A DNA stretch of 64,000 nt from Hydractinia symbiolongicarpus (GCF_029227915.1 NC_079879.1:27379095-27443094), one strand, 5' to 3'; shown: positions 8,828 through 64,000, counted from the first letter of the stretch. The notes: a model not told the origin generated them from the letters alone. A program made the numbers and translations.

Positions 8828-9169
8828 TTGTCATCAGATGAAAGTCAATTGGTGACAGAAACTATTGGTAAAAACGAAGGCAAGAATGTTATACACAGTG
8901 ATGAATTTGCTGAAATTTTGGAACAATTTAAATGTAAAACTGTAGTAACAGAATCAAATGTGAAATCAGTTATCATTGAGATAGCTTGCCAAGAACTTGT
9001 ACAGAAAAGTCACATTATAGCCTCATGTTGGGAAGTTGCCTTTTCAGAGCTTAAAAAGAAGCCAGAATTTTCATCCATGGAGAATATTCAACCACAAAAA
9101 ACGTTGAAGCCTTGTTCAAAAATGTCCATACAAGTACCAGTGCTGAACAAGACTAATTCAATTATTTAA
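8828..9169 (+). CDS. 113-aa ORF of unknown function (possible exon or remnant) ending immediately at the LINE 5' boundary
   Basis: Open reading frame only. No recognisable domain and only a weak splice context (tacttgtcatcag|). Confidence 0.2.
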   Translation: MSSDESQLVTETIGKNEGKNVIHSDEFAEILEQFKCKTVVTESNVKSVIIEIACQELVQKSHIIASCWEVAFSELKKKPEFSSMENIQPQKTLKPCSKMSIQVPVLNKTNSII

Positions 9170-9541
9170 ACGGTATGGGTGAAGGGTCTCCTTTGGGTGA
9201 AGGGTCTCCTTAAGAGACAAGAGAGGAGTTGAATGTCCTCCACCATACCTTAGTTTAAAGGGGCGATTGTGGAAGTCCCATGAAATGCCACATAGTGATG
9301 GTGTCACTTTAAAAAACACCCAGTCCGGTCTGTGAACGGTTGGCGCTAGGAAGGGCATCCAGCTGTAAAACAATGCCAAAACTCTTTATTAATAGCCGTA
9401 AGAATAGTTAATCAGACAAACTGCGTAAACGGGGCTGGAACTCTAAGGAGTGAAGGTGTCGCGCACGGTAGGACAGATGTCAGATGTGAGCATCGTCAGA
9501 CCGTTAGCCAGCTATCACATCACAAGGTAGATAACACTAGG

Positions 9542-12500: not shown

Positions 12501-12589
12501 GTTTAGATCTAACACAGTCTAGATCAGATTGGAAGAGGGTCATTAATATACCCCGTCCAACCCATGCTAGCATGGAAAACGGACGTTAA
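9542..12589 (+). pseudogene. LINE APE-RT ORF, all three ORF-track pieces in the same frame; interrupted by one in-frame TAA (10304) and a compensating -1/+7 indel pair near 11310-11490
   Basis: 9542, 10433 and 11453 are all equal to 2 mod 3. Compared with the 37110 copy, there is a 1-bp deletion (gagaagcttttg vs gagaaagcttttg) and a 7-bp duplication (cacttatcacttagtga). Confidence 0.8.
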
Positions 12590-12595
12590 GCCGAG

Positions 12596-12626
12596 AATGA
12601 TGATGATGATGATGATGATGATATGT
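12596..12626 (+). repeat. (ATG)n microsatellite tail of the LINE
   Basis: aatgatgatgatgatgatgatgatgatatg immediately after the ORF stop. Confidence 0.9.
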
Positions 12627-13758
12627 GAGAGGTTTGGAAACCATTATGTTGAAAAAAATTATGAAGTTCATAACAGGCTCAGATAAAATGGTTGTTGATA
12701 CAGTAGAAAAAATTTTCATGCGACCAGAATTGAATTTTACTTGTAGACCAGTAACTCACACATGCACACCAAGCTTAGAACTTCCTTCAACTTATAATAA
12801 TTACTGCGAACTCAGTCAAGAATTCAGCAATATATTGCAGTCATCTGAATGGGAGATGGACATCATTTAAACTGATTTTGGATTCTTTCTATTTATTTAT
12901 TATTTATTTATTTAAAAATATTTATACAGGATGAGGACTTCAGTAATTTGCAAATTTGTACATAAATACAAAAAAACTGCTATCAATGTCCGTCCTGTCT
13001 GACAATAAAAATGGAAAAAAGCAGTAAAAACAGTAAAAACAGCAAAAACAATAAAAACAAACAAAAAATTGATCAACTAGAAATGCAACAGTATGCATAC
13101 AAGGTGTGAAGTGACTTCACATGGGAGCTAAATAAGACATAGGCATAGTTCAAAACATTATTCCCACTTAGCTAAACTTGAAGCAGACTGGACGGCACAG
13201 TGACTAAGATAGAAGCTGAGAGTGCACATCGCCCAATAGCTGGTATCGTCTATTAAGAGAGGTACCCTCTGAGCGCATTCATAAAAAAAGAGACATTTTA
13301 TCGATTTTTCGAATTTCAATTGGCAGTGAATTATACAGTTTACCCCCTGCAAAATAGAAACTCTGCCGGGCGATTTCTAGTTTAACACGAGGTAACCTGA
13401 CAATGCAGCCGTTATTTCGTGTGTCATTGTCATGGCTGACAAAATAATTGTCAAAATGTTCAGAGGTTAGTTCATTTAGTAGATTCTTGTTTTGTTGTTA
13501 TATTTGAACTGACAGACAATAGAGTTTCCAGTATTCTGTTTTGTTAACACTTTTTTTATACAATTTTGGAGAGGGATTTTAGGTGCAATAAAAAACTTTG
13601 TATCGATTTATTTTTATTGTGTTTTTTTATCAATTGTATGAATATCTAGGAAAATTGAAGAATGCCTAAAATTATGAAGGGGTCTGTTTCATACTTTGAT
13701 ATTAAACAGGTAATACTAAATTTGGATTAAAAAAAACATTTAAACAGTTAACTATGTT

Positions 13759-14870
13759 CTATGAATACTGTTCGATCTTTGATTGTAAGTACATGTAGAG
13801 ACGTAACGCATCTGAAACAACATTAGGAAAGTCCCATCCATTTTGTTGCATCAAAGTTTGTGTAAACTCCTTGAACTTGGGGGAAACATGTTCAACTGTG
13901 TTGTGGGTAACGCAGGGATAAAATTGTTCAATCCTATCAGCATCTACGTTTATTAGGCAATCAGTGGCATGATACAAATGTGGCAAGTAATACATTACAT
14001 CTGGTCTTCCACGAGGGCCAGAATTCCTACTCTTAGAAATAATGTGTGAATTCCACTCATCTTGAACAGTCTGCAACTCCTTGCAGATCAACGGCGTATG
14101 CGATCGACTAACACAGGATCCGAACTTGTAAAAACATTTAGGTTGGTCATATATCTGAAAAATGATTTCCACCAACCAATGCGATCACGCTGTAAGGTAG
14201 ACAAGTAGGACTCAATTTCTTTGATTTTCTGGGGAAGAGATAATACTAAAAAAGCCCAAGCTGTTTTGACTGTCAGTTGAACTATGTAAATAAACATGAA
14301 TTGGCTCAATCAAAGAATGTTTGGTACTGTCATCTCCCTTGATCTGACTTGGTATGCCTTCCAATTCCTTGATTGAGTCTAAATAAAATTTTGCTATGAT
14401 TTACAGGAGTTTATTGGAGGATCCCACTTCAAGCCAGTTTAATTTTCTCAAGAAGCCATCAATACAACCGTAGATCGAAACCCAAGAGGTTTCAATTTGT
14501 CATGACCGTCAATGTGCCATGCGTAATTGGGCCCTTCGCGAAACATATTTGCGTCTGTGAAGTCGTCGCTTTTTTCGAAGAAACACTCCTTCGGGGTTTA
14601 ACGATTTTATTATCAATCTTACGTCTTCGTGACGACAAATAATTGACCAGACAACACTGTTGCTCACATTCTACGATAACCTAAGATCGAACCACTACCA
14701 TACATCTCCTGCTGGATTGCTTGACCAAGTTCCTGATTTGAATTACGCTTTTCCTCTACAGCTCTACGTTTCAAGCCATGCTGTCTGAGTTTTCGTTTAA
14801 GATTCGATTAACTAATTTCAATCCTACGAACGTGTTTCAACAACCCAATTATTTCAGAATATGAAAAGCC
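13759..14870 (-). pseudogene. decayed copy of the HTH + rve integrase family found intact at 49668..51201 (multiple stops and frameshifts)
   Basis: Minus-strand translation gives ...GPNYAWHIDGHDKLKPLGF (compare [30 protein letters not shown]), QRDRIGWWKSF (compare NQRIERLWRDL) and SDPVLVDRIRRIPLICKELQTVQDEWNSH (compare LDPVNDVDLYALHSVFLPRINRACEKFVKQWNNH). Upstream, SLKRKLRQHGLKRR resembles the HTH segment. Confidence 0.5.
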
Positions 14871-15049
14871 TTTTACAAAATAGTCTCGGATGACATCCAT
14901 CCTTCCTCTTCAGCTCTTACTCAGATCATCTCTATTTGGCTTGATCAAGAATTTTCAAGTTTCAAGAACTGTAGATAGTTTCAAATATTTATGAAAAAAA
15001 TAAAATGTGTTATAAAAGTTCCAAAAACAATTTGAAGAAGTTTTTATAA

Positions 15050-24206: not shown

Positions 24207-25690
24207 TTTTTTTTTTTTTTTTAATTTATTTTGCCGTTGTAGAATATACAGTTTTCCGTAAGAATAAAATACAAATCTTAAGCTATTATATCGTGTAATC
24301 TAAAGATAGGATTGCATATGCTAAAAATATTAGCTAGAGAGGTAAAAAATGGCAGGAGCGAGAAGAAGGCTATAATAGCCTTTTCACCAAGCCCCCAACC
24401 TATATAAAAGGTTAGCATTGAAGATGATGAGGAGTTGTGTTATATGTGTCGTACGTTGTAACTGTCGTGTGTTCTAAAATAAACATAGATTGTCAGTAGT
24501 CAATAGTTTATGTTTTAGTTTATGTTTGAATTCGTTAAGTGATGTAATAGTTTTCATGTCGTTATCAAGAAATGTATTCCACAATTTAGGTCCTCTGCTA
24601 GTTATAGAGAACTTTGTGATTGTATAATTAATTCTAGGTTGAAAAAAACTGTTAATTGAAAATCTGGATGGATATTTATGTTGTATCTTCTGAAACATAT
24701 CATTAAATACTCTTGGTAACACATTGTTTTCAAGCTTAAACATAAAAATAAGAGTTTGATAAATGTTTAGTTGGTATAAATTCAGTACACTGATCTTTTT
24801 GAATAACTCTCTGGAGTGAGTGTACCTGTCAACATTTAAAATAATTCTGATTGCATGTTTTTGTTTATTTTGTAATTTTGTCAATTTTGTAGCGTTGGTG
24901 CTGCACCACGCAATATTTGCATAATTTAGATAGCAATGAATGAAAGAAGAATATATGTTTTTTAAACAATTCTGATCTAGAACAAATTTTGCTTTAAATA
25001 GGATGCCAATATTCTTTGCGACCTTTTCTTCTAAAATATTTATATGTTCTCTCCAAGTAACATTTTCATCAAGAATAACTCCTAAAAATTTCATGGATTG
25101 TGCTCTTTTTATACTTATATTATTAATAGATAAATCAGGAAACTTCAATGGCATATCATCTTTTTTATTGTGCCTGTGAAAAAGTGTGTACTTTGTTTTA
25201 GAAATATTTAGGGACAGTGTGTTTGCCTTAAACCATTCTGATGTTTTTACATCTTTATGTGCATAAAACAGATTTGTATCATCTGCAAATAAAATTGAAT
25301 GTAAAATATTCGAAGCTTTGTTTAAATAATTTACATATATAAGGAATAAGAGTGGTCCTAATATGGAACCTTGTGGAACTCCACAGATGATTGTTTTGTA
25401 GTTTGTACTTCCACCGTCAAAGGAAATGTACTGTTTTCTATTGGATAAATAACTTTCAAACCAGCGAATGTTGGAATTGCGGATACCGTAGTTTTTGAGT
25501 TTTTCTAGTAGAATTTTGTGATCTACGGTGTCAAATGCTTTGCTTAGATCTATAAAAATTCCTAGCATGTACTTGTTTTCGTCAAACGCCTTTGATATTT
25601 CATTAACAAGTTTAACTATTGCATGATCAGTAGAATGGCCTGCTTGAAAGCCAAATTGTTCATCAATTTTCAGGTTTATTATTTTTCTTT
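24207..25690 (-). mobile_element. 5'-truncated non-LTR retrotransposon (RT domains + C-terminal region; FADD box; poly(A) tail) of the Jockey/CR1/L2 type
   Basis: Minus-strand translation runs from FGFQAGHSTDHAIVKLVNEISKAFDENKYMLGIFIDLSKAFDTVDH... through PQGSILGPLLF and ILFADDTNLF to NIAWCST. A 3' UTR follows, then A26 (plus-strand T-run 24207-24232). Confidence 0.7.
24474..25680 (-). CDS. reverse-transcriptase fragment ORF of the truncated LINE (ORF-track 24474..25568 extended upstream in a second frame)
   Basis: RT motifs as listed for the parent element. The frame breaks near 25568. Confidence 0.6.
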
Positions 25691-27283: not shown

Positions 27284-27644
27284 CGCTGTTGTAGATTAGT
27301 GGTTATAGCTCTCGTATTCTGTACGGGAGACCGGGGTTCGATTCCTCTTGACAGCGATTCAACATGGGCGAGTGAATGTTACCATAGCCCAGGGTTAACC
27401 CAAGCCATGTCAGGGAAATTGGGGAGATGGCTCCATGTGTGGGCCGTTGGATGTTGTCGGGAGTTGTCTAGTAGAGCGTGGGCCCTAATTGGGTCTGTGT
27501 AGCTCAAATTGAGCATTAAATACTCTAGGACTCTCCATCTAAGCCATGGCCCCTCCTGGAAAAAATAGACAAGGTATATCCCTCGATATTAGTGAGGCTA
27601 GCCATTGTATATAAAATATGCACATCTATCTATCTATCTATCTA
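27284..27644 (+). mobile_element. tRNA-derived SINE, full-length copy with (ATCT)n tail
   Basis: gtagattagtggttatagctctcgtattctgtacgggagaccggggttcgattcc... The body is ~90% identical to the 19912 copy. The tail is atctatctatctatctatcta. Confidence 0.8.
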
Positions 27645-36789: not shown

Positions 36790-37109
36790 GTAAGTTCTAT
36801 CATTTTTCATGTTATTATTTTGTCCATCATCAAATAGTTTTATACTTTTTAACATTTATTACTGACATGTGTTAAGATTTATTTTTATGCTTGTCCACCT
36901 GCAAACTATGTCCTTAAACAAAAAAAGGCACTGCTACCTCTAACAGCGGGTTGTGGGAGGGACCAAAGTGGCATTATCTCTAAAATAATAGCCATTGTTT
37001 GGGTTTTCCTGAGACTCTCTGCACATATGAAAGTATTTTTTTGAAGTTTTTTTACAAAACAATTTTTAGTGTTCCTCACACTAAACATTTTTTAAACATT
37101 TTGCCATGT

Positions 37110-37895
37110 TGGTTGATCAAGTAATGAAAGTTATTGAAAGAGTGATTGATAAGTTACTTAGAGAAACAATTGATATAGATAAGATGCAATTTGGTTTTGT
37201 TCCAGGGCGTGGCACTACAGATCCAATATTTTTACTCAGACAACTTCAGGAAAAGTATTTAGGAAAGAGAAAGAATTTCTATTTTGCCTTTGTAGATTTA
37301 GAGAAAGCTTTTGATAGAGTGCCACGTAAAGTTATTTGGTGGGCTATGAAAAAATTAGGTGTGGATGAGTGGCTAGTTACGATGGTACAGTCTATGTACA
37401 GCAATGCTAGAAGTCGTGTCAGGATTAACGATTCACTTAGTGATGAATTTAGTGTGAATGTTGGTGTACATCAGGGTTCTGTACTTAGTCCTTTGTTGTT
37501 TGTTCTAGTCTTAGAAGCGCTGTCGATGAATTTCAGAACAGGTTGTCCATGGGAGTTATTGTATGCAGATGATTTGGTTCTCATAGCAGAGTCGATGGAA
37601 GAATTAGTTGAAAAGTTTGAGAAGTGGAAGAAAGGACTAGAAGAGCTAAGGGTGAACACATCAAAGTCTAAAGTCATGATTAGTAGCATTGCAGCCAAGT
37701 GTGACCTTGTAGTTGGAAAGTGGCCTTGTGGAGTTTGCAGGAAAGGGGTTGGTAGTAACTAAATTTTTTGTCAGACTTGCAAGCATTGGGTACATAAGAA
37801 GTGCAGTAGTATTGGTGGAAGGTTAGGACCAGACATCCAGTTTGTATGCAATGTGCAAAGGTGAGATTATAGAGAATGAAGTATTTCCAGCATTT
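37110..37895 (+). mobile_element. internal 0.8-kb fragment (RT core) of the same LINE family as 9175..12628, inside an intron of the plus-strand gene
   Basis: ~95% nucleotide identity to 11166..11955. Its ORF (37106..37762) keeps FGFVPGRGTTDPIF and YADDLVLIA. Truncated at both ends. Confidence 0.85.
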
Positions 37896-46279: not shown

Positions 46280-46705
46280 ATACTGTATTGCGTGCTTCTC
46301 GGTATTGCGCAGCTAAGCTGCCATTTTGCGTGAGAGACGGACAGACGTATACGGGCATTATAATATAGACTAGTCGTTGCCCGTGGAAAAATACACGGGT
46401 TCGTCCGTCCATTATATTTACCCGTCGCAACAAAGTGGATAAAAATGTATCGTATTTGATATTCGTGTTTCCGTAACATCATTTTCTAACTCAGCGGGGG
46501 GTCCGCGCAGAGACAGACAGACGACGGCTATTATTATAGGGACTAGCCGTTAGCCCGTGGAAAAATCCACGGGGTCGCCAGTCCTTCAACTTTACCCGTC
46601 GCAACAAAGTGGATAAAGATATATCGCATTTGATATTCGTGTTTCCGTAACATCATTTTATAACTCAGCGGGGGTCCGCGCAGAGACAGACAGACGGAAT
46701 ACGGC
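46280..46705. repeat. ~167-bp tandem repeat, ~2.5 copies, each containing palindrome CCGTGGAAAAATCCACGG and gagacagacagac
   Basis: 46364..46535 and 46536..46705 are ~85% identical. A partial unit at 46280..46363 shares the ...gagacggacagacgtatacgggcattataatatag end. Confidence 0.7.
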
Positions 46706-47192
46706 TATTATTAAAGATATATACAGACCTTCAATAACAAATCGAACGTGCAATATGGTGGCTTCATATTTCTTCTTTGGTTTTTTACTTTCTTTATCTT
46801 TACTCGCTATTTTATTCGCAAGTTAAGTAGTACAAAATAATAAAGATATGTTCTTTACATTTTGTTTAAGGATACGGTAACACCCTGAGACACATACTCA
46901 GTATATTTAAAATATCCCCTCTGTGCGCTATATTAACCCTAGCAAATATATGTTCTGAAAGCCAAATAAATTATCTATAGAATGATGATCCAAAAAGTAG
47001 AAAAAATATTATATACAAAAATTCACCGTTCCAGTTCATTTTGTCTAACACTTCCCTCAGTAAAATTTTTGTTCGTCGAAAAAAATATCATTGCGAAGCT
47101 CTTATTCACCTTTAAAAAATTTTGCTTTTTTTACTCAAAACAACACGTGGTTCCAAAAATATAGCATATTTTGTGTCACAATAGCTGTTTTA

Positions 47193-47225
47193 TATGGCGC
47201 GCCTGAGGGGACAAAATTAAAAAAA
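47193..47225 (+). repeat. left terminal inverted repeat (33 bp)
   Basis: Exact reverse-complement match to 51456..51488. Confidence 0.9.
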
Positions 47226-47516
47226 TATTTTGTTATTTAAAAAAAGAATATTTTTGTAAAAAAACAGTTTTTTTGAAGAAAATACTTATTTTTTGAAATT
47301 TTTAAAAAATAATAATGAAAAAACAACAACGAATAAACAAAAAGATATAAAAACAATTTGATTTATTTTATTGTTCATTTTTTTGAAAAAAAATGAAAAA
47401 CAGTTGGAGAACATTTTTGTCCGACGGCCAGGCTCTATCAATCAATCATTTTTGTTCGACAGCGTAACCTGTTCTGCAAATTATTACTTTGTTCGCCCTC
47501 CTGTGGCACTCCTAAA

Positions 47517-47679
47517 ATGGCGCAGAAAGAAAACAACATGAGCTCTGCACTTGAAGGCCTCAGCAACCTTGTTCGTGCTTTGGAACAGCACAAAAAGAAG
47601 CCCGAGCAGAACAGCGAATCAAACAATGTTGAAGAAGCTGTACATTTACTCTTCCGTCCAAATAGACAAGAGAAAAATG
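47517..47679 (+). CDS. exon 1 of transposon-borne HECT-like gene (MAQKENNMSSALEGLSNLVRALEQHKKKPEQNSESNNVEEAVHLLFRPNRQEKN)
   Basis: ATG in good context (ctaaaATGG), donor G|gtaaaaag at 47680, phase 1. Confidence 0.5.
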
Positions 47680-47866
47680 GTAAAAAGCTACGTTATTTTG
47701 TTTCACAAACCACTTTCAGTTTTTTGGTTTTGTGACTTATATAGCTAGTAGCAATCTAGCTAAAAACCAAGTTGCAATGACTACAATATATATTTTTCCC
47801 GAAAGAGCTGGTATGGGTAACAGCTATTTTTGTGACCTTTGTAATGTCATTTTTGAATTATTTTAG

Positions 47867-48745
47867 AACACGCAGATCGGAACACTCTCAGCAGACGATT
47901 ACCATCTTCCACCAAGAGACCTTTTACTAATACCAATAGTAATACTTCTAAGCGAAGGAAATCTGCAACATTCATGAAAGATCTTGTGTTAATTCCTTCA
48001 CCAAAGATTAAAGTTATACCGAAAGGTGAATTGAAGGAACATTTACAATCATCAGGATTTATTGTTAATGCCTTCGAAGTTTTACTTGAAGCTCAGGAGG
48101 AGGAAATCAGAGAAACGATTTTTGAAAAGTTCCAAGATAAACTTCCAAGCAAGAATCAATTTTCATTTATGAAACCTGTACATAAAAAATTAATGAATCC
48201 TTCAGGCATAAATAACATAAATGGAAAAGTTTTAAAGCATTTGTCTTCTCCTGGTATAAACGGGTGCATATATATCAGGTCTTTAATTGACATAACTAAA
48301 AGTTATTTTAGTGCATTCATCAATTGCTATGAAGAAGAAGAAAAGGTTAAATCTGACAGTGACGATGGATTATTAGAAACGCCAGCATTTGGATTAATTA
48401 AAGATGTAAATAACTATACTTCAACAGGCCAAATTGAGTCATCATCTCAAAGTTCATCAAAGGATCTTGTGCTTGAACAATCAGAAAAAAAACTTGGCTG
48501 CAGTACAGAATTTGTGATGAAGAATTTGGTTGATATTCGTACAATTCATGCGGCAACAGGGAACAAACAAAAAATTTCAATCAACAGGTCAGATACATAT
48601 TTAAAAACCACTTTAATTCAACATAAACGTGGTCAAATTGACATATCTTACTTCCCAGAAGTAACCTTCGAAAATGGAGAAGAAGGCATGGATGCAGATG
48701 GTCCAAAAAGGGAATATTTTTACATATTACTTGATCGATTGATAC
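47867..48745 (+). CDS. exon 2 of HECT-like gene; ends with the HECT N-lobe start motif ...ISYFPEVTFENGEEGMDADGPKREYFYILLDRLI (3' junction uncertain: candidate donors at 48746, 48761, 48763; ORF runs to stop at 48795)
   Basis: Acceptor ttattttag| at 47866 restores frame with exon 1 (G+AA = Glu). GEEGMDADGPKREYFYILL matches the HECT consensus GEEGIDAGGLTREFFTLL. Confidence 0.5.
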
Positions 48746-48901
48746 GTGGAGAAGGAATATGTGTCATCATTCTACTTTACATTTTTACTTTCTAGAAAAT
48801 TTTTCCAATTTTTTATAGGACTATAATTTGTATTTTTAATATTGTTTGCAAGTTGATGTATTTCTTATGGGTGTAAAATTTGCAGCTTCTTTTTATTTTA
48901 G

Positions 48902-49122
48902 CTATCACAACAAAAGACCTATTAGTATTTCGTTGCTCTTCGCCAGTTCCTTTAGAAAATGGCGTTACTCTAAAGTTCAACAGGAGAGGTAAACCATTGC
49001 CTGATGCAGATACGTGTCTTTCGATACTTTCGATTCCAATTTGTCATGATGCATATAACGATTTCAAAAAGGCAATTGATGCTACCTTACGATTACAAGG
49101 ACAGGGTTTTGGACGTTTGTGA
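48902..49122 (+). CDS. last exon of HECT-like gene: HECT C-lobe end with catalytic Cys (...FRCSSPVPLENGVTLKFNRRGKPLPDADTCLSILSIPICHDAYNDFKKAIDATLRLQGQGFGRL*)
   Basis: Matches HECT C-terminal consensus ...VTGSSRVPLxGF...LPxAHTCFNxLxLPxYxSxExLxxxLxxAIxxxxGFGxx. The Cys lies ~35 residues from the C-terminus. Candidate acceptors are cag| at 48885 and ttttag| at 48901. Stop at 49120-49122. Confidence 0.55.
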
Positions 49123-49667
49123 GTTTTTAATATATATATACATGGTTTTTTTTCTTTTTGCCGTCCTAAAACGTCCAAAGTTATACAAACCTGGAAGTTT
49201 AAAAAGATTATTATATAAGATTATTATATATTATATAAAAAGATTGTTATATTATATGTTGACATTATTTTTTATTTTGCATTTCTGCAGTTTTTCTTTA
49301 CTTTTCGTTATATAAAAAGGAGACTTATTGACTTAACTAATTTTCATAATGCTAATAACAATAAAAGGCCTGAAAGTTTTTTACGTTAGTGAAAAATATA
49401 TGTGTAGGATACTATGTTTTGTTAGTGATTACTAAAGTTTTTGTTATTTAATACGAGTAAATGTGAACTTCTGATTAAAGTATTTCTTTGATACACTAAA
49501 ATACATTTTTGTCTCTGTTAAAAATTAACAACTTTTTAACTTTACATACTCCTACTATCAAGTGCCAAATAAACGCCAACCCACCAACCGAATTAATTTT
49601 TTGACCCTTATGTTTCATCGCGAGAGCTTAAAATCGTTTGTTTGTTATTCGACCGTACATCAGCTTA

Positions 49668-50439
49668 TCATAGCGCATGTACCAATAATTCACGAGTTTG
49701 AATGTACAAGTTTATTCCGTGATTGTGGTCTTCAGAAAGCGGGTCAATATTTTGCATAAAATTGTCTGGTAAATTCAGAGCTATCTCAGGAACATTTACG
49801 TTGTTGATCGAATCTATTAAAGGAGCTGGACCGTCAAGTTCGACTCCATGTGTACCAATGTTTTCATTTTCCTCCATTATCTGTCTCAAACCGTTATCAG
49901 AAGAATGCCAGTTCATATACATGCCTTGAGTCCACAGCTGATACGGCGTTCTATTGCCTTCAGTTGATAAAGGATGATTATTCCACTGCTTCACAAATTT
50001 CTCGCAAGCACGATTAATTCTAGGCAAAAACACGCTATGCAATGCGTACAAATCTACATCATTTACGGGGTCTAACATTTCTTGCTGCTCCATGAAATAA
50101 AAAATGCCTTTAAAATAATCAACCACCTGTATGACTAAGTCGCGCCAAAGCCTTTCGATTCTTTGATTATGCACTGATAGTCCAGTTATGACAGGCTTAC
50201 TGGCCACACCAAAGTGTCCCAGCATCCATCGTGCCACTTCAATATTTTCTGTACCGTGGTCAGTGCGAATTCTCCTAGGGACATTGTATTTATTGATGGC
50301 TTCCAGAAATAGATCTAATACGGTAGTGCTTCTGTTATTTGAATTACATCTGAGAAATGTTACTAATCTTGAATAACCATCTATACATCCGTGAAACACA
50401 ATGCGCCATCTAATTAACTTATGATGACCATCCATATGC
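49668..50439 (-). CDS. integrase exon 2: rve (retroviral-type integrase) catalytic core, D-D-E intact (HMDGHHKL ... IRTDHGTEN ... NQRIERLW)
   Basis: A 73-bp GT-AG intron (plus 50440..50512; minus gtaagtaag...attcttttag) joins ...SLW to HMDGHHKL in frame. D1-D2 spacing is 56 aa and D2-E spacing is 35 aa, typical of rve domains. Stop at 49668-49670. Confidence 0.7.
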
Positions 50440-50512
50440 CTAAAAGAATATTTTAAGAAATGGATATGGGCATAACGCAAACACCGTTTGTTAATTAGGG
50501 AAACTTACTTAC

Positions 50513-51201
50513 CACAGCGAATTTGGAGATTTCACATTGTACCTCCTTCTTTGTATACAATTCCTTCGTCTCATCACCCTGCTCAACGCGTCTACCCTCA
50601 TGATTGATTGTCGCAATCTTTCTCTTTTCACCTTAATATGTTTGCTGGTAATTGCACCTATTACCATTCTTTCGCCGCAATTTGGGAGTATCAAAAGCAC
50701 TTCTCGAACTATTTCATCGAGTTGTTGATCAGTTATGTCTGAATATTCTGCTTCTCCAAAAGGTAAATCAAATTCTTTACGACGACGACGGAGTGTTTTG
50801 ATACTAATACCAAGCATTTGAGCAATGTCCTTCCATTGATATCCGATCTTTTTCAAGCTAATGACTTGTTCCTTTGGCACTTCATACTTTGGTCTGCCAA
50901 CCTCACCAGTCACAGCTCTAGGACTAATGTAAGCATTGCTTTTATCACCACCTCGACAACGATGTTTCACTAGTTCTTCATAAAAATTTTGTAGTGACCT
51001 AATAACTTTTGGTATACGATCACTTATATCAGGCACTTGTAAGTACTCTAAGTATATTGATGCTAAATTCCATATAATTTCGTCAAACTGAATGTTGTAA
51101 ATTTCCTGCCCGATTTCATTCAAGGGCAAAAACCTGTTTCTTTCTAAACCATTTAGAAACGTAATTGCAGCTGTAACATGTGGAACATATACCGCCATCA
51201 T
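50513..51201 (-). CDS. integrase exon 1: N-terminal region with helix-turn-helix (ISLKKIGYQWKDIAQMLGISIKTLRRRRKEF) up to ...RRRYNVKSPNSLW
   Basis: ATG ATG at plus 51201/51198 on the minus strand. The exon ends ...ctgtg|gtaagtaag (phase 2), which splits the Trp codon. Confidence 0.65.
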
Positions 51202-51455
51202 TGTTTTTCTAACATCTTCATTTTTGCGCAAAATTTTAAATAAAATGCCGAACAGTCATACTTGTCGAAATTTTGATTGATTGATTGACAGGTGCCACAA
51301 AAAAAGAAAAAAACATTTTTTGAAAAAAGTAATAATTTTTTTCAACTAAAAAGAAAAAAAATTGCGAAAAAAAATTTTTTTTCGTATTTTTTAATATATT
51401 TTAATATCAAAAATGTTTTTTTCTTGGAAAAAAGTTTTTTTGTTTATTTTTTGGG

Positions 51456-51488
51456 TTTTTTTAATTTTGTCCCCTCAGGCGCGCCATA
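51456..51488 (-). repeat. right terminal inverted repeat (33 bp)
   Basis: Exact reverse-complement match to 47193..47225. Confidence 0.9.
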
Positions 51489-53187
51489 GTTTTATGACAG
51501 ATTTATCATTTTATGCATGATAGATCAATAACTCGATATTTCCTCACTTTCTGCGTTAAAAAAAGCAAAGCTTTGTAGCCAAAGATATAATTGTCGCAAC
51601 AAACTTGTTTTCGTACAATTTCGACAAGATGGAGGGGAGTGTTCGACAAAAATATATACCGTTACGACTGAAAATTTTATTTCGAGAAAAAGCAAATCAA
51701 AGATCTTTGCTTTTACCTGCAAGAATCATAGTTACACACACTTAAACGTGAATATTTTATTTCAAATTAAAGGCAAAGTATTTTCGCAGAACTTTGGGTC
51801 TAGTTATTGTTAAACAGACAACACGATAACATAACATAACAGAATAAAAACGAAAAAAATAAAGAAATAAATTAAAAAGGTATAGATGATAAATAACAAT
51901 ATATTTGTATAGATTATTAAAGTGTTAATGTTTCCTATGTTATATGTAGGGATGCAATTTTTTATTCGTTCTGCATAACTCTTTTTAATTATTATACAGA
52001 TTAAATATATTTAAGGAATTTTAAACTTTGAGCACACTTTTGAAAACACTAAAAAATAAAGAAGATTTTTCTTCATTTTATCACTCTTAACAATAAATAT
52101 TTTTGATTCTTTTTTAAAAAATATCAGGAAATTATACCAAAGAATCAAAATTAAAAAAAATATTTTTTTTAAAAAAATGACCCTGAAGGGGGTTACCGTA
52201 TCCTTAATACTTTTGCCATTTTGATCTTTAACTTTTTTTATTAAATCATATGTACATTGACCCCATGACAATAACAATAAAAATTGTTTTTTAATTTAGC
52301 CACCCGTTTGACAAACGAGTAAAAGTACTCAATTATAAATAATTCAGCACTCACAAAAATGTAAACAATATGATGTGTGGTTTATAGTTATAGTTTATAG
52401 AGCAGGCGAGAAAGGCAATCAGTCTGGTCCTTAAAATCAACGCTTATCATAAACTTTTATTCAGCAGCCGTGCAGCAGCGCAGTTCGCCTCTTCTTTAAA
52501 ATATAGAATAGCCTACGTGATTATGGCGGCGAACTTCGAACTTCAAAATGAGCTGTCTTGTTTCAATATATTTTGTCCATTAAACTTAAGCTTTCTTTAA
52601 GGATATCAAAATGTAGTTTCTCGCATACGAAAGTTTAGACGTAAGGCTCGAATTCAAGTCAACCAATAGCAAACCAATTTTGCGAAAAAAAACATAATTC
52701 AAATAAATTAATTAGCACAACGCTTAACTTCAACACTAAATCCGCGAAAATAAATTCTCTTATTTCCCACGAAATCCCAGAGAGAAAAAAACCCGGAAAG
52801 CCCAGGGGTTCAGCGGAAGCAATATTATTCCATACAAAAAGCAAGGAAATTGAGAATTTAAAACAAACGAACTTATTAAGGAGAGCTTAATTCTCTCAAA
52901 ATGTTTTAAAACTATTGAAAACAAAAATAATAATAAGAAAAAGATATTGGGTATGTGGTTGAACGAAAGTTGTAAGAAATACAGGACCAATAGGATTTGG
53001 AAATCAAACAAATACTCTTCGCATAGCGCCGGAAATAGCATAAACGTTTGTATTAATATATTAATATTTGTAAAGGATTCTTCTAGCAACAAGACCATGG
53101 TAAAAAGAAAGATAAAAAATGATTTAAGATAAATTCTCACAAGGTCGAAATTCGTAAATTAATTCTACAAAGATTCAGAAATCTGTT

Positions 53188-54138
53188 TCATGTCAAAGGC
53201 TTGTCTGCATATCCCAAGTATGTTTTTTTTGCAAAAAAATACATTTTTGGTATAGGACGATAAACTATGGACGCCGTCAATCCTTTAAAACCGAAACTTC
53301 CAATGACTTTATCAGTATTTCGCGTGACATTACAATTCGATCGCAAAGCTGCCCACGTATCATTCATTGTTTCTTGTGCATACCTCGTCCAGGTTCCACG
53401 CTCTGCAGCAATATGTTCTTTGAAGTAGAATCGACCTCCTGGCTTCAAAACTCTCATGATTTCATTTAAAGCTTTGGTTTGGTCTTGAACACAACAAAGC
53501 AAGAGCGAGCTTACTACACAACTGCATGAGTTATCAGCAATTAATCCACTCATATCTTCAACATTTCCAATCAAATATTTCTCCAACGTAACATGCTTAT
53601 TTTTCTCTAAACTTTCGTTTAAATAGGACTTGAAATTCTCATTCAAGTCAATTGTCATTAACCTAACACCTTTAGGGTAGTGTTCCAAGTTAGCGCAACT
53701 ACCAGCTCCAAGTTCCAGCACTGGTCCTCCTCCTACCTGTTCAATCACTTCCTCCATGCTACTGAATAACTCCTGATTCATTTTCTGGATGTCTTTTTGT
53801 TGGGCTTTATTCTTAGCCAAGCGACTGGTATCCCATGCTAAAAACTTTTTAAGTAGGCTTTTCGCTATTGACTGCACAAAAGCTAGCTTGAACAGGAAAT
53901 AAATTGTAAGAGCGAGGATAAAAAACCAGATTAGAAGCGAATAAACAAGTGACATGATGCTTCTAAATGTGAAGAAAAGAAAAATTAACATGTGTAATCG
54001 TTTAGCATGAATGATGAAAACATATAAAAGTGCCATGCCGACTGTTCGCCATGCGATAGGCCAGGTTTCAAAAATAATTAGCTGAGTTACAAAAATAATT
54101 GAGGTTAATCCTGAATCAATAGTAGAAACTGGCTTCAT
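53188..54138 (-). CDS. intronless 316-aa membrane-anchored SAM-dependent methyltransferase, METTL7/TMT1 (thiol methyltransferase)-like
   Basis: N-terminal hydrophobic helices. Motif I VLELGAGSCANLEHYP, then ...CVVSSLLLCCVQDQTKALNEIMRVLKPGGRFYFKEHIAAERGTW, closely paralleling METTL7B VLEVGCGTGANFQFYP...[43 protein letters not shown]. Confidence 0.8.
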   Translation of the reverse strand: MKPVSTIDSGLTSIIFVTQLIIFETWPIAWRTVGMALLYVFIIHAKRLHMLIFLFFTFRSIMSLVYSLLIWFFILALTIYFLFKLAFVQSIAKSLLKKFLAWDTSRLAKNKAQQKDIQKMNQELFSSMEEVIEQVGGGPVLELGAGSCANLEHYPKGVRLMTIDLNENFKSYLNESLEKNKHVTLEKYLIGNVEDMSGLIADNSCSCVVSSLLLCCVQDQTKALNEIMRVLKPGGRFYFKEHIAAERGTWTRYAQETMNDTWAALRSNCNVTRNTDKVIGSFGFKGLTASIVYRPIPKMYFFAKKTYLGYADKPLT

Positions 54139-56914: not shown

Positions 56915-59900
56915 TCGAAAAAATCAGGTATGGATGCCTGAATTATTCTGTACCCCCTACAGTTCTGGGCGTACAAATATCTGGCAACGCCATGGGGGGT
57001 ACAGAAAAAATCACGTATGGATGCCTGAATTATTCTGTACCCCCCTACAGTTCTGGGCGTACAAATATCTGGGTACGCCATGGGGGGTACAGAAAAAATC
57101 AGGTATGGATGCCTGAATTATTCTGTACCCCCCTGCAGTTCTAGGCGTACAGTATCCGGCAACGCCATAGGGGGTACAGAAAAAATCAGGTATGAATGCC
57201 TGAATTATTCTGTACCCCCCTACAGTTCTGGGCGTGCAAATATCTGGCTACGCCATAGGGGGTACAGAAAACGTCAGTTATTAATGCCTGAATTATTCTG
57301 TACCCCCCAACAGTTCTAGGCGTACAATATCTGGCAACGCGATAGGGGGTACAGAAAAAATCAGGTATGAATGCCTGAATTATTCTGAACCCCCTACAGT
57401 TCTGGGCGTACAAATATCTGGGTACGCCATGGGGGGTACAGAAAAAATCAGGTATGGATGCCTGAATTATTCTGTACCCCCCTACAGTTCTAGACGTACA
57501 ATATCAGGCAACGCCATAGGGGGTACAGAAAAAATCAGGTATTAATGCCTGAATTATTCTGTACCCCCCCACAGTTCTAGGCGTACAATATCTGGCAACG
57601 CCATAGGGGGTACAGAAAAAATCAGGTATGTATGCCTGAATTATTCTGTACCCCCTACAGTTCTGGGCGTGTCAATCTCTGGCAACGCCATAGGGGGTAC
57701 AGAAAAAATCAGGTATGAATGCCTGAATTATTCTGTACCCCCTACAGTTCTGGGCGTACAAATATCTGGGTACGCCATGGGGGGTACAGAAAAAATCAGG
57801 TATGGATGCCTGAATTATTCTGTACCCCCTACAGTTCTGGGCGTGCAAATATCTGGCAACGCCATAGGGGGTACAGAAAAAATCAGGTATGAATGCCTGA
57901 TTTATTCTGTACCCCCTACAGTTCTGGGCGTGCAAATATCTGGCAACGCCATAGGGGGTACAGAAAAAATCAGGTATGTATGCCTGAATTATTCTGTACC
58001 CCCTACAGTTCTGGGCGTGCAAATATCTGGCAACGCCATAGAGGGTACAGAAAAAATCAGGTATTAATGCCTGAATTATTCTGTACCTCCCCTACAGTTC
58101 TAGGCGTACACTATCCGGCAACGCCATAGGGGGTACAGAAAAAATCCGGTATGAATGCCTGAATTATTCTGTACCCTACAGTTCTGGGCGTGCAAATATC
58201 TGGCAACGCCATAGGGGTACAGAAAAAATCAGGTATGGATGCCTGAATTATTCTGTACCCCCCTACAGTTCTGGGCGTACAAATATCTGGGTACGCCATG
58301 GGGGGTACAGAAAAAATCAGGTATGGATGCCTGAATTATTCTGTACCCCCTACAGTTCTGGGCGTACAAATATCTGGCAACGCCATGGGGGGTACAGAAA
58401 AAATCACGTATGGATGCCTGAATTATTCTGTACCCCCCTACAGTTCTGGGCGTACAAATATCTGGGTACGCCATGGGGGGTACAGAAAAAATCAGGTATG
58501 GATGCCTGAATTATTCTGTACCCCCCTGCAGTTCTAGGCGTACAGTATCCGGCAACGCCATAGGGGGTACAGAAAAAATCAGGTATGAATGCCTGAATTA
58601 TTCTGTACCCCCCTACAGTTCTGGGCGTGCAAATATCTGGCTACGCCATAGGGGGTACAGAAAACGTCAGTTATTAATGCCTGAATTATTCTGTACCCCC
58701 CAACAGTTCTAGGCGTACAATATCTGGCTACGCCATAGGGGGTACAGAAAACGTCAGGTATTAATGCCTGAATTATTCTGTACCCCCCTGCAGTTCTGGG
58801 CGTACAAATATCTGGTAACGCCATAGGGGGTACAGAAGGCGTCAGGTATTAATGTCTGAATTATTCTGTACCCCCCTGCAGTTCTAGGCGTACACTATCC
58901 GGCAACGCCATAGGGGGTACAGAAAAAATCACGTATGAATGCCTGAATTATTCTGTACCCCCTACAGTTCCGGGCGTGTAAATCTCTGGCAACGCCATAG
59001 GGGGTACAGAAAAAATCAGGTATGGATGCCTGAATTATTCTGTACCCCCCTACAGTTCTGGGCGTACAAATATCTGTGTACGCCATGGGGGGTACAGAAA
59101 AAATCAGGTATGGATGCCTGAATTATTCTGTACCCCCCTGCAGTTCTAGGCGTACACTATCCGGCAACGCCATAGGGGGTACAGAAAAAATCAGGTATGA
59201 ATGCCTGAATTATTCTGTACCCCCTACAGTTCTGGACGTGCAAATATCTGGCAACGCGATAGGGGTTACAGAAAAAATCAGGTATTAATGCTTGAATTAT
59301 TCTGTACCCCCCAACAGTTCTAGGCGTACAATATCTGGCAACGCGATAAAGGGTACAGAAAAAATCAGGTATGAATGCCTGAATTATTCTGTACCCCCTA
59401 CAGTTCTGGGCGTGCAAATATCTGGCAACGCCATAGTGGGTACAGAAAAAATCAGGTATGTATGCCTGAATTATTCTGTACCCCCTACAGTTCTGGGCGT
59501 GCAAATATCTGGCAACGCCATAGGGGTACAGAAAAAATCAGGTATGGATGCCTGAATTATTCTGTACCCCCCTACAGTTCTGGGCGTACAAATATCTGGG
59601 TACGCCATGGGGGGTACAGAAAAAATCAGGTATGGATGCCTGAATTATTCTGTACCCCCTACAGTTCTGGGCGTACAAATATCTGGCAACGCCATGGGGG
59701 GTACAGAAAAAATCACGTATGGATGCCTGAATTATTCTGTACCCCCCTACAGTTCTGGGCGTACAAATATCTGGGTACGCCATGGGGGGTACAGAAAAAA
59801 TCAGGTATGGATGCCTGAATTATTCTGTACCCCCCTGCAGTTCTAGGCGTACAGTATCCGGCAACGCCATAGGGGGTACAGAAAAAATCAGGTATGAATG

Positions 59901-62900
59901 CCTGAATTATTCTGTACCCCCCTACAGTTCTGGGCGTGCAAATATCTGGCTACGCCATAGGGGGTACAGAAAACGTCAGTTATTAATGCCTGAATTATTC
60001 TGTACCCCCCAACAGTTCTAGGCGTACAATATCTGGCAACGCGATAGGGGGTACAGAAAAAATCAGGTATGAATGCCTGAATTATTCTGAACCCCCTACA
60101 GTTCTGGGCGTACAAATATCTGGGTACGCCATGGGGGGTACAGAAAAAATCAGGTATGGATGCCTGAATTATTCTGTACCCCCCTACAGTTCTAGACGTA
60201 CAATATCAGGCAACGCCATAGGGGGTACAGAAAAAATCAGGTATTAATGCCTGAATTATTCTGTACCCCCCTACAGTTCTAGGCGTACAATATCTGGCAA
60301 CGCCATAGGGGGTACAGAAAAAATCAGGTATGTATGCCTGAATTATTCTGTACCCCCTACAGTTCTGGGCGTGTCAATCTCTGGCAACGCCATAGGGGGT
60401 ACAGAAAAAATCAGGTATGAATGCCTGAATTATTCTGTACCCCCTACAGTTCTGGGCGTACAAATATCTGGGTACGCCATGGGGGGTACAGAAAAAATCA
60501 GGTATGGATGCCTGAATTATTCTGTACCCCCTACAGTTCTGGGCGTGCAAATATCTGGCAACGCCATAGGGGGTACAGAAAAAATCAGGTATGAATGCCT
60601 GATTTATTCTGTACCCCCTACAGTTCTGGGCGTGCAAATATCTGGCAACGCCATAGGGAGTACAGAAAAAATCAGGTATGTATGCCTGAATTATTCTGTA
60701 CCCCCTACAGTTCTGGGCGTGCAAATATCTGGCAACGCCATAGAGGGTACAGAAAAAATCAGGTATGGATGCCTGAATTATTCTGTACCCCCTTACAGTT
60801 CTGGGCGTACAAATATCTGGGTACGCCATGGGGGGTACAGAAAAAATCAGGTATGGATGCCTGAATTATTCTGTACCCCCCTACAGTTCTAGACGTACAA
60901 TATATGGCAACGCCATAGGTGGTACAGAAAAAATCAGGTATTAATGCCTGAATTATTCTGTACCCCCCTACAGTTCTAGGCGTACAATATCTGGCAACGC
61001 CATAGGGGGTACAGATAAAATCAGGTATGTATGCCTGAATTATTCTGTACCCCTCACAGTTCCGGGCGTGTAAATCTCTGGCAACGCCATAGGGGGTACA
61101 GAAAAAATCAGGTATGGATGCCTGAATTATTCTGTACCTCCCTACAGTTCTGGGCGTACAAATATCTGGGTACGCCATGGGAGGTACAGAAAAAATCAGG
61201 TATGGATGCCTGAATTATTCTGTACCCCCCTACAGTTCTAGGCGTACAATATCTGGCAACGCCACAGGGGGTACAGAAAAAATCAGGTATGAATGCCTGA
61301 ATTATTCTGTACCCCCCTACAGTTCTGGGCGTGCAAATATCTGGCAACGCCATAGAGGGTACAAAAAAAATCAGGTATTAATGCCTGAATTATTCAGTAC
61401 CCCCCTACAGTTCTAGGCGTACAATATCTGGCAACGCCATAGGGGGTACATAAAGCGTCAGGTATTAATGCCTGAATTATTCTGTACCCCCCTGCAGTTC
61501 TAGGCGTACACTATCCGGCAACGCCATAGGGGGTACAGAAAAAATCAGGTATGAATGCCTGAATTATTCTGTACCCCCTACAGTTCTGGGCGTGCAAATA
61601 TCAGGCAACGCGATAGGGGGTACAGAAAAAATCAGGTATTAATGCTTGAATTTTTCTATACCCCCCAACAGTTCTGGGCGCACAATATCTGGCAACGGGA
61701 TAGGGGGTACAGAGAAAATCAGGTATGAATGCCTGAATTATTCTGTACCCCCTACAGTTCTGGGCGTGCAAATATCTGGCAACGCCATGGGGGGTACAGA
61801 AAAAATCAGGTATGGATGCCTGAATTATTCTGTACCCCCCTGCAGTTCTGGGCGTACAAATATCTGGGTACGGCATGGGGGGTACAGAAAAAATCAGGTA
61901 TGGATGCCTGAATTATTCTGTACCCCCCTACAGTTTTAGGCGTACAATATCTGGCAACGCCACAGAGGGTACAGAAAAAATCAGGTATGAATGCCTGAAT
62001 TATTCTGTACCCCCCTACAGTTCTGGGCGTACAAATATCTGGGTACGCCATGGGGGTTACAGAAAAAATCAGGTATGTATGCCTGAATTATTCTGTACCC
62101 CCTACAGTTCTGGGCGTGTCAATCTCTGGCAACGCCATACGGGGTACAAAAAAAATCAGGTATGGATGCCTGAATTATTCTGTACCCCCCTGCAATTCTG
62201 GGCGTACAAATATCTGGGTACGCCATTGGGGGTACAGAAAAAATCAGGTATGGATGCCTGAACTATTCTGTACCCCCTACAGTTTTAGGCGTACAATATC
62301 TGGCAACGCCACAGGGGGTACAGAAAAAATCAGGTATGAATGCCTGAATTATTCTGTACCCCCCTACAGTTCTGGGCGTGCAAATATCTGGGAACGCCAT
62401 AGCGGGTACAGAAAAAATCAGGTATTAATGCCTGAAATATTCTGTACCCCCCTACAGTTCTAGGCGTACAATATCTGGCAACGCCATAGGGGGTACAGAA
62501 AAAATCAGGTATGTATGCCTGAATTATTCTGTACCCCTTACAGTTCTGGGCGTACAAATATCTGGCAACGCCATAGGGGATACAGAAAAAATCACGTATG
62601 GATGCCTGAATTATTCTGTACCCCCTTACAGTTCTGGGCGTACAAATATCTGGGTACGCCATGGGGGGTACAGAAAAAATCAGGTATGGATGCCTGAATT
62701 ATTCTGTACCCCCTTGCAGTTCTAGGCGTACAGTATCCGGCAACGCCAGAGGGGGTACAGAAAAAATCAGGTATGAATGCCTGAATTATTCTGTACCCCC
62801 CTACAGTTCTGGGCGTGCAAGTATCTGGCTACGCCATAGGGGGTACAGAAAACGTCAGGTATTAATGCCTGAATTATTCTGTACCCCCTACAGTTCTGGG

Positions 62901-64000
62901 CGTGCAAACATCTGGCTACGCCATAGGGGGTACAGAAAACGTCAGGTATTAATGCCTGAATTATTCTGTACCCCCCAACAGTTCTAGGCGTACAATATCT
63001 GGCAACGCGATAGGGGGTACAGAAAAAATCAGGTATGAATGCCTGAATTATTCTGTACCCCCTACAGTTCTGGGCGTACAAATATCTGGGTACGCCATGG
63101 GGGGTACAGAAAAAATCAGGTATGGATGCCTGAATTATTCTGTACCCCCCTACAGTTCTAGACGTACAATATCAGGCGACGCCATAGGGGGTACAGAAAA
63201 AATCAGGTATTAATGCCTAAATTATTCTGTACCCCCCTACAGTTCTAGGCGTACAATATCTGGCAACGCCATAGGGGGTACAGAAAAAATCAGGTATGTT
63301 TGCCTGAATTATTCTGTACCCCCTACAGTTTTGGGCGTGCAAATATCTGGCACCGCCACAGGGGGTACAGAAAAAATCAGGTATGGATGCCTGAATTTTT
63401 CTGTACCCCCCTACAGTTCTGGGCGTGCAAATATCTGGCGACGCCATAGAGGGTACAGAAAAAATCAGGTATGAATGCCTGAATTATTCTGTACCCCCCT
63501 ACAGTTCTGGGCGTACAAATATCTGGTAACGCCATAGGGGGTACAGAAAGCGTCAGGTATTAATGCCTGAGTTATTCTGTACCCCCCTGCAGTTCTAGGC
63601 GTACACTATCCGGCAACGCCATAGGGGGTACAGAAAAAATCAGGTATGAATGCCTGAATTATTCTGTACCCCCTACAGTTCTGGGCGTGCAAATATCTGG
63701 CAACGCGATAGGGGGTACAGAAAAAATCAGGTATTAATGCTTGATATATTCTGTACCCCCCAACAGTTCTAGGCGTACAATATCTGGCAACGCGATAGGG
63801 GGTACAGAAAAAATCAGGTATGAATGCCTGAATTATTCTGTACCCCTTACAGTTCTGGGCGTGCAAATATCTGGCAACACCATAGGGGGTACAGAAAAAA
63901 TCAGGTATGTATGCCTGAATTATTCTGTACCCCCTACAGTTCTGGGCGTGCAAATATCTGGCAACGCCATAGGGGGTACAGAAAAAATCAGGTATGGATG
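56915..64000. repeat. tandem satellite, 87-88-bp monomer (~81 copies in window, array continues beyond window end), with higher-order repeat structure
   Basis: Consensus-like monomer atcaggtatgRatgcctgaattattctgtaccccc(c)tacagttctgggcgtacaaatatctggcaacgccatagggggtacagaaaaa. Monomer subtypes tgcagttctaggcgtacagtatccgg and aacagttctaggcgtacaatatctgg recur with period. All long ORFs on both strands here are repeat artefacts. Confidence 0.95.

Follow-up and report, generated by a model that had tools for sequence, protein, structure and literature searches.

The window analysed here is a 64-kb stretch (64,000 nucleotides, numbered from its first letter) of the genome of the hydrozoan Hydractinia symbiolongicarpus. 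It contains a 4,296-bp element, at positions 47193-51488, lying between exact 33-bp terminal inverted repeats (TIRs). Two convergent genes are found between these repeats: a gene on the minus strand encoding an integrase-type transposase and a gene on the plus strand, referred to below as ORF2 (open reading frame 2), encoding a protein resembling HECT-type E3 ubiquitin ligases. The locus corresponds to LOC130645787/LOC130645788, on a 35-Mb chromosome, and both gene models (the spliced integrase and the ORF2 read-through) are identical to the RefSeq proteins XP_057307868.1 and XP_057307869.1. The features of the element, including its target-site duplication (TSD) and the helix-turn-helix (HTH) region of the transposase, are as follows.

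47187-47192 (no strand): left TSD, GTTTTA, read directly; the same hexamer is present at 51489-51494.
47193-47225 (plus strand): left TIR, TATGGCGCGCCTGAGGGGACAAAATTAAAAAAA, with a TAYGG terminus, complementary at 33 of 33 positions to 51456-51488.
47517-47679 (plus strand): ORF2 exon 1, with its ATG at 47517 and the donor G/GTAAAA; exons 1 and 2 translate to XP_057307869.1.
47867-48757 (plus strand): ORF2 exon 2 as far as the deletion junction, collinear with the Logan contig L001 up to 48757 and divergent beyond.
48758-48901 (plus strand): deletion scar and remnant of ORF2 intron 2, with about 654 bp absent at 48757/48758 and the acceptor TTTTAG at 48901/48902.
48902-49122 (plus strand): ORF2 exon 3, the HECT C-lobe, the translation of which matches the C-terminus of the relative P0127 and aligns with the LPxAxTC...GFG end of solved HECT domains; stop codon at 49120-49122.
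49668-50439 (minus strand): transposase exon 2, the catalytic core including the stop codon, matching Pfam rva_4 and rve.
50430-50432, 50259-50261 and 50154-50156 (minus strand): codons of the catalytic residues D233, D290 and E325, respectively, forming a DD35E triad.
50440-50512 (minus strand): transposase intron, 73 nt, GTAAGT...TTTTAG; the spliced product is exactly XP_057307868.1.
50513-51201 (minus strand): transposase exon 1, the N-terminal region with the HTH, with its ATG at 51201; no match to an HHCC zinc finger, which was sought in the transposase by Pfam scan.
50752-50874 (minus strand): transposase HTH, approximately residues 110-150, based on sub-threshold matches to HTH_23, HTH_8 and HTH_28.
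51456-51488 (minus strand): right TIR, with a CCATA terminus, 100% complementary to the left arm.
51489-51494 (no strand): right TSD, GTTTTA, abutting the right TIR.

The boundaries of the element are sharply defined. The first 26 nucleotides of the TIR occur at only two places in the window, with no occurrence expected in shuffled sequence, and the probability of a chance match between the flanking hexamers, at the base composition of the window, is ~4e-4. Inverted similarity ends with the TA termini, and the two flanks, when compared, are unrelated, so the TIRs do not mark the border of a larger repeat, a possibility raised with the original prediction for this locus and checked here on both sides. 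That prediction, made from the sequence alone, had described exact 33-bp TIRs bounding 4,296 bp, a GTTTTA duplication immediately outside them and two convergent intron-containing genes, and on all these points it was borne out: the arms are complementary over their whole length, the hexamer abuts both TIRs, and the integrase gene and ORF2 both contain GT..AG introns. The terminal motif of the TIR, TATGG.GCGCC...GACAA.ATT, is common to the elements L007 and L003, which are described below.

The transposase gene consists of two exons (51201->50513 and 50439->49668), with a product of 486 amino acids. Its strongest Pfam match was to rva_4 (PF24764, integrase core; E=9.6e-83), followed by rve (E=2e-9), and these matches, together with the HTH at residues 110-150, agree with the HTH plus rve-type DDE integrase originally proposed. 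Sub-threshold likeness to the transposases of IS481 (E=2.5e-16) and IS3 (E=1.9e-9) was found with NCBIfam. The residues D233, D290 and E325 were invariant in 13 homologues from cnidarians, fish, insects, a sponge, a nemertean, an echinoderm, a hemichordate and a fungus. The transposase homologues, 3,133 in number, included Hydra relatives and sequences from Nematostella, corals, fish and Rhizophagus, all taxa with reported IS3EU or GingerRoot elements, and the top match was a RefSeq protein of H. symbiolongicarpus itself (99% identity).

Complete IS3EU families always have TA..TA ends and usually a 6-bp TSD, and IS3EU and GingerRoot, which lack the HHCC finger, together form one clade (PMC10045372). 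Fungal IS3EU elements have TIRs of more than 30 bp with TAYGG..CCRTA termini (PMC12730594), GingerRoot elements have a 6-bp TSD and TA termini, with relatives in fish and cnidarians (PMC6839031), and described IS3EU elements are reported to encode two proteins (PMC8232023). IS3EU-like repeats have already been reported from the Hydractinia genome (PMC11934779). The element studied here combines a 6-bp TSD, TATGG...CCATA termini, 33-bp TIRs, an integrase-type DDE enzyme without an HHCC finger and two genes. On the basis of these structural hallmarks, matched to the published descriptions, it is assigned to the IS3EU/GingerRoot superfamily, all the structural hallmarks of which it displays, rather than being an element that fits no described superfamily. 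It represents a new family within a known superfamily and is, as a transposon, ordinary.

The structure of the second gene in this copy requires some explanation. Intron 1 of ORF2 lies at 47680-47866, and exon 2 encodes an N-terminal domain of ~110 amino acids (from MKDLVLIPSP) followed by the first ~40 amino acids of the HECT N-lobe (..FENGEEGMDADGPKREYFYILLDRLIRGEG). Exon 3 contains the catalytic Cys codon, at 49015-49017, in the context LPDADTCLSIL, and the C-terminal sequence GFGRL; this Cys corresponds to approximately C609 of the full-length protein. Contig L001 has 666 bp at the site at which the window has 221 bp, and the full-length RefSeq relatives P0127 (643 amino acids) and P0132 (641 amino acids) include the segment absent from the window copy. 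From these comparisons, the window copy is deduced to have lost ~654 bp, equivalent to 218 amino acids of the HECT N-lobe, at 48757/48758. The reading frame of the window copy enters the former intron and stops at 48793-48795, yielding the 363-amino-acid RefSeq model, and the C-lobe exon with the catalytic Cys is, by the same comparison, stranded by the upstream deletion. Judged from its ORFs, the copy is transposase-competent but accessory-defective, an internally deleted derivative. The original prediction recognised only the beginning and the catalytic end of a HECT domain in this protein; both ends are indeed visible here, but the domain appears fragmentary because of this copy-specific deletion, and full copies encode 643 amino acids.

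The relationship of ORF2 to HECT ligases emerged from increasingly sensitive comparisons. A phmmer search of the PDB with the full-length-equivalent ORF2 gave 18 matches, all to HECT ligases and all weak (best E=0.006). Word-indexed homologue searches recovered one or two ORF2 relatives, and an exhaustive scan with HMMER, covering 1.84 billion representatives, yielded 658 (E-values down to 6e-34), the closest full-length members of which pass the Pfam HECT cut-off (for example, 63 bits versus 23.9). A profile built from ORF2 and 17 relatives matched 75 solved HECT chains, with AREL1 as the best match (E=1.6e-32), in an alignment that extends from the N-lobe, past the catalytic Cys, as far as the terminal GFG motif. 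The identity of ORF2 to its relatives is 19-27%. The ORF2 Cys, ~35 residues from the C-terminus, falls in the same column as the catalytic Cys of AREL1 and is retained in Hydractinia and in the elements L003, L007 and L008. The cnidarian and fish elements, and those of other hosts, also preserve the LP.A.TC sequence around the Cys and, at the C-terminus, the GFG motif together with a hydrophobic residue at position -4. We accept the ORF2 family as homologous to HECT domains, and ligase activity is predicted for it.

The N-terminal domain of ~110 amino acids upstream of the HECT domain (KDVxLLPSP...GQGPIYIR) is common to more than 18 relatives, and its profile had no significant match in the PDB or Pfam. 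The nearest relatives of ORF2, from Clytia, Aurelia, Lineus, Amphiura, hemichordates and fish, are annotated “G2E3-like”, a label that comes from automatic annotation. G2E3 proper has PHD/RING-type zinc fingers N-terminal to its HECT domain. No PHD or RING match to ORF2 was found in Pfam, and orthology of ORF2 to G2E3 was rejected on these grounds.

Two other architectures were observed among the HECT-like relatives. In many of them (P0203, P0207, P0227, P0261, P0275, P0281 and others), a CPxCx(11)HAxxC motif lies between the N-terminal and HECT domains and gives sub-threshold matches to zf_UBZ, a ubiquitin-binding zinc finger (best E=6.6e-4); this motif is absent from the Hydractinia protein. 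In some close HECT relatives (P0147, P0149, P0150, P0155, P0157 and P0165), such as in the hemichordate Glandiceps, the HECT domain is preceded by fibronectin type III repeats in place of the transposon-type N-terminal domain. These fibronectin-type-III proteins may be host derivatives or may belong to a different lineage.

The pairing of an integrase with a HECT-like protein was investigated at other loci, each reached through one of the two genes and then searched for the second. L007, a eukaryotic contig from the European Nucleotide Archive, contains a complete element with 106-nt TIRs starting TATGGGGCGCCGATGCTGACAAAATT and the TSD CGCTCT; its integrase is 46% identical to that of the Hydractinia element and is accompanied by a convergent multi-exon HECT-like gene. 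The loci L003-L006 have an integrase that is 50% identical, with the same layout and type of TIR as L007, and the flanks of L003 and L004 differ from each other. In L003 (a metagenome contig), the flanks beyond both TIRs (1-220 and 8215-8434) are the same sequence in inverted orientation, probably an assembly artefact due to TIRs longer than the k-mer, and the TSD is therefore not scorable there. In the grouper Epinephelus coioides (L008), the HECT-like protein led to a convergent rva_4 integrase (43% identical), within 95-nt TIRs (99% identity) starting TATGAGGGGCC and flanked by the TSD GATATG; the catalytic Cys is carried by an unannotated C-lobe exon. There are thus three complete elements (that of Hydractinia, L007 and L008) with three different TSDs (GTTTTA, CGCTCT and GATATG), and in these complete elements the two genes are present together, at 30-50% protein identity. 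Less complete pairings were found in L011, in which a C-lobe remnant is all that persists of the HECT-like gene near the integrase, and in L012 (Apostichopus japonicus), in which an N-lobe fragment lies 8 kb from the integrase; TIRs were sought around both pairs without success, and these two loci, like L002 (see below), were scored as partial support only.

These pairings bear directly on the origin of the second gene, which was initially described as a captured passenger. According to such a scenario, an rve-type transposon recently acquired part of a host HECT ligase gene, in the Hydractinia lineage, and carries it as non-functional cargo in the style of Pack-MULEs or GingerRoot. The window copy, with only the start and end of a HECT domain and an ORF2 without a Pfam match, has the appearance expected of such cargo, and Selaginella GingerRoot elements do carry acquired gene fragments (PMC6839031). 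However, full-length copies encode a complete protein of 643 amino acids, the truncation is a deletion specific to the window copy, and the same gene pair is found in the TIR/TSD elements L007 and, in fish, L008, as well as in at least four other Hydractinia pairs. These elements keep the catalytic Cys and the C-terminal motif, and the pairings in L007 and L008, at ~30-45% protein identity, imply long co-inheritance. As three independent TIR/TSD elements carry both genes, a recent capture in Hydractinia is excluded as far as these comparisons reach, and we consider this scenario highly improbable. The HECT-like gene is instead judged, from its distribution, to be a long-standing accessory component of an animal IS3EU lineage.

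Within Hydractinia, clustering at 90% identified at least six integrase loci and at least six ORF2 loci. Five integrase/ORF2 pairs with near-adjacent gene numbers were distributed over four chromosomes (at least four pairs, on three other chromosomes, in addition to that in the window). The integrase copies differ at 4-6 of 486 amino acids (~99% identity), and contig L001, which is frameshifted, is 98.9-99.6% identical to the DNA of the window. The identical TIRs, the intact TSD and the ~1% divergence between copies indicate that the Hydractinia family has recently been active. Mobility of the family had been proposed previously, on the strength of a supposed decayed copy of the integrase at 13759-14870; the near-identical copies elsewhere in the genome uphold the proposal itself, but the remnant does not demonstrate it, being only ~22% identical and belonging to a separate family. 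This pseudogene (13600-15000, minus strand) encodes an rva_4 integrase (Pfam E=6.5e-15), is frameshifted and riddled with stop codons, and no TIRs were detected around it. It is judged to be the remnant of a different, older IS3EU-type family, distant from the one considered here.

The number and arrangement of these copies also bear on whether the two genes form a mobile unit at all. If the integrase and the HECT-like gene (for instance, a G2E3-like gene) were a host or domesticated pair that merely happened to be neighbours, the inverted repeats would be incidental. The spliceosomal introns in both genes would suit host genes of this kind. Nevertheless, the exact TIRs with a TSD, the presence of several ~99%-identical copies on four chromosomes, the flanks, which differ between copies and samples, the lack of PHD or RING matches to ORF2 in Pfam and the existence of three independent complete elements with three different 6-bp TSDs all argue against a host pair, and we find this explanation barely credible.

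The 4,296-bp unit is very probably a recently inserted two-gene IS3EU/GingerRoot copy, with a HECT-like gene that is a conserved accessory of its lineage. Several observations weigh against this interpretation. The direct Pfam scan of ORF2 gave no HECT match for either the window version or the 643-amino-acid composite, such that, of the two domains for which an HMMER check had been suggested, rve was recovered and ORF2 remained below the HECT threshold; the assignment of ORF2 to the HECT family is based on transitive and profile evidence. AlphaFold2 modelling of P0001 from a three-sequence alignment (predicted local distance difference test score, 41.5; predicted template modelling score, 0.31) provided no usable structural support. 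In L002, both genes lie on one strand, and a search of the surrounding sequence found no TIRs. Finally, the integrase locus of Rhizophagus (L010) has no HECT neighbour, implying that the accessory gene is clade-specific rather than universal.

By analogy with the IS3/IS481 transposases and integrases, the HTH region of the transposase would bind the TATGG-type inverted termini, and the DDE core would cleave the element and transfer its 3'-OH ends into target DNA at positions 6 bp apart, a staggered joining that would generate the GTTTTA duplication. Movement might proceed by cut-and-paste or via a circular intermediate, the route taken by bacterial IS3. The full-length accessory product would be the 643-amino-acid protein, in which a domain specific to the family, at the N-terminus, precedes a complete HECT domain with its catalytic Cys. 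This protein may ubiquitinate a host factor (involved in silencing, repair or checkpoint control) or the transposase itself, which would favour transposition or escape from silencing or repair surveillance; this is the role that we favour, at about even odds. The retention of the catalytic Cys and C-terminal motif across phyla points to selection for catalysis. Alternatively, the HECT-like protein may have lost catalysis and serve as a scaffold, or may regulate or inhibit transposition, instead of working as an E3 ligase on host factors. The high divergence of its HECT domain, with no direct Pfam match and such low identity to its relatives, is in keeping with loss of activity, and the persistence of the deletion copy in the window and of the frameshifted L001 suggests that the gene is dispensable in cis. 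Against this, the conservation of the Cys, of LP.A.TC and of GFG with its hydrophobic residue at -4 in the cnidarian, fish and other elements fits purifying selection on catalysis, and we regard a non-catalytic role as rather unlikely.

The literature searched contained no paper linking IS3EU or GingerRoot to HECT, although Repbase or Kojima 2019 may already record the second protein, and no paper linking “G2E3-like” genes to transposons. This literature did not say what the second protein encoded by animal IS3EU elements is, and no published DNA transposon with a HECT ligase accessory gene was found in it. The comparisons reported here indicate that the second gene of animal IS3EU encodes a conserved HECT-type E3 ligase-like protein, with the Cys retained, that is co-inherited with the transposase across phyla. 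More tentatively, and with somewhat less than even confidence, a metazoan-wide IS3EU clade may have possessed its own HECT ligase since before the split between cnidarians and vertebrates, or may have spread it between these groups horizontally, the ligase having a private N-terminal domain and, in some lineages, an additional UBZ-like finger; this would be the first ubiquitin E3 ligase known to belong to the core accessory equipment of a cut-and-paste transposon. If active, the HECT protein would provide a testable case of a DNA transposon manipulating the host ubiquitin system, as viruses do. There are also practical implications for genome annotation. In a paper on the genome of a hadal sea cucumber, 20 copies of “G2E3” were interpreted as an adaptive expansion (PMC9700323). 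Before expansions of “G2E3-like” genes in fish and marine invertebrates are attributed to host adaptation, the genes should be examined for TIRs and for an rva_4 integrase neighbour. The Hydractinia family, with its identical TIRs, ~99%-identical copies and intact transposase ORFs, offers a possible model for experiments on IS3EU in a tractable cnidarian.

The neighbourhood of the element is transposon-rich. A 21-nt inverted repeat, TTAAGGATACGGTAACACCCT / AGGGGGTTACCGTATCCTTAA (46866-46886 and 52187-52207, 95% complementary), brackets the IS3EU copy. With the IS3EU element removed, these repeats would bound a unit of 1,040 bp with TTAA at both ends, present as one copy in the window, and this unit may be a small non-autonomous transposon that received the IS3EU insertion. 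A 174-bp tandem repeat (46333-46696; 2.1 copies, 87% match) lies ~500 bp upstream of the element, and an intronless ORF of 316 amino acids (53191-54138, minus strand), with a class I S-adenosylmethionine-dependent methyltransferase domain (Methyltransf_11, E=2.5e-16), is located 1.7 kb from its right end. From 56917 to 64000, and running past the end of the window, there is a satellite array with an 87-bp unit (~81 copies, 90% match) and a GC content of ~46%, versus ~33% elsewhere in the window; this satellite may correspond to a tandem repeat among those reported as abundant in Hydractinia (PMC11934779). Retrotransposon debris, at 8800-12600 (plus strand), 24477-25568 (minus strand) and 37106-37759 (plus strand), consists of endonuclease and reverse transcriptase ORFs of an element lacking long terminal repeats (non-LTR), one ORF having a PHD finger after the reverse transcriptase, and two further reverse transcriptase fragments. 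One match to a tRNA (Rfam RF00005, 36 bits) was detected, at 27285-27356 (plus strand).

Polintons (Mavericks) are self-synthesising elements of 15-20 kb, with capsid genes and a protein-primed DNA polymerase. They resemble the Hydractinia element in their DDE enzyme of the retroviral-integrase fold and their 6-bp TSD, but the latter is 4.3 kb long, with two genes and no polymerase. Polinton termini are AG..TC (PMC6839031), as opposed to TA..TA. Ginger1 and Ginger2 (TDD) also have a DDE enzyme of the retroviral-integrase fold, and some Ginger2 elements have a 6-bp TSD. However, Ginger elements have TG..CA termini, and Ginger1 combines an HHCC finger with a 4-bp TSD (PMC6839031), unlike the TA..TA termini, 6-bp TSD and lack of an HHCC finger here. 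Termini, TSD length, the HHCC finger and gene content exclude identity with Ginger1, Ginger2 or Polinton, in agreement with the original prediction of a TIR DNA transposon that fits none of these groups cleanly. The closest resemblance is to IS3EU/GingerRoot, in the integrase- or IS3/IS481-type DDE transposase with an N-terminal HTH-like region and in the occurrence in cnidarians and fish. As in fungal IS3EU, in which it encodes an alpha-kinase, the second gene is opposite in orientation to the transposase gene; the fungal elements differ in carrying alpha-kinase and TET/JBP genes, in place of a HECT-type gene with a novel N-terminal domain.

The ORF2 family shares with the HECT E3 ligases (AREL1, WWP1/2, ITCH, NEDD4 and E6AP) a whole-domain profile match, the catalytic Cys and the terminal GFG. 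It differs from them in being transposon-borne, in lacking WW, C2 and PHD/RING targeting domains and in having its own N-terminal domain of ~110 amino acids. Accessory enzymes are also known from other transposons, such as the plant MULE and CACTA elements, which carry Ulp1-like proteases. The nearest parallel is provided by the fungal IS3EU elements with TET/JBP or alpha-kinase genes, in which the gene for an accessory enzyme has passed stably down the lineage along with the transposase and is presumed to manipulate host regulation of the element (PMC12730594). The predicted accessory enzyme of the Hydractinia lineage differs from these in that a HECT ligase would write ubiquitin marks, as opposed to acting as a protease or a DNA-modifying enzyme.

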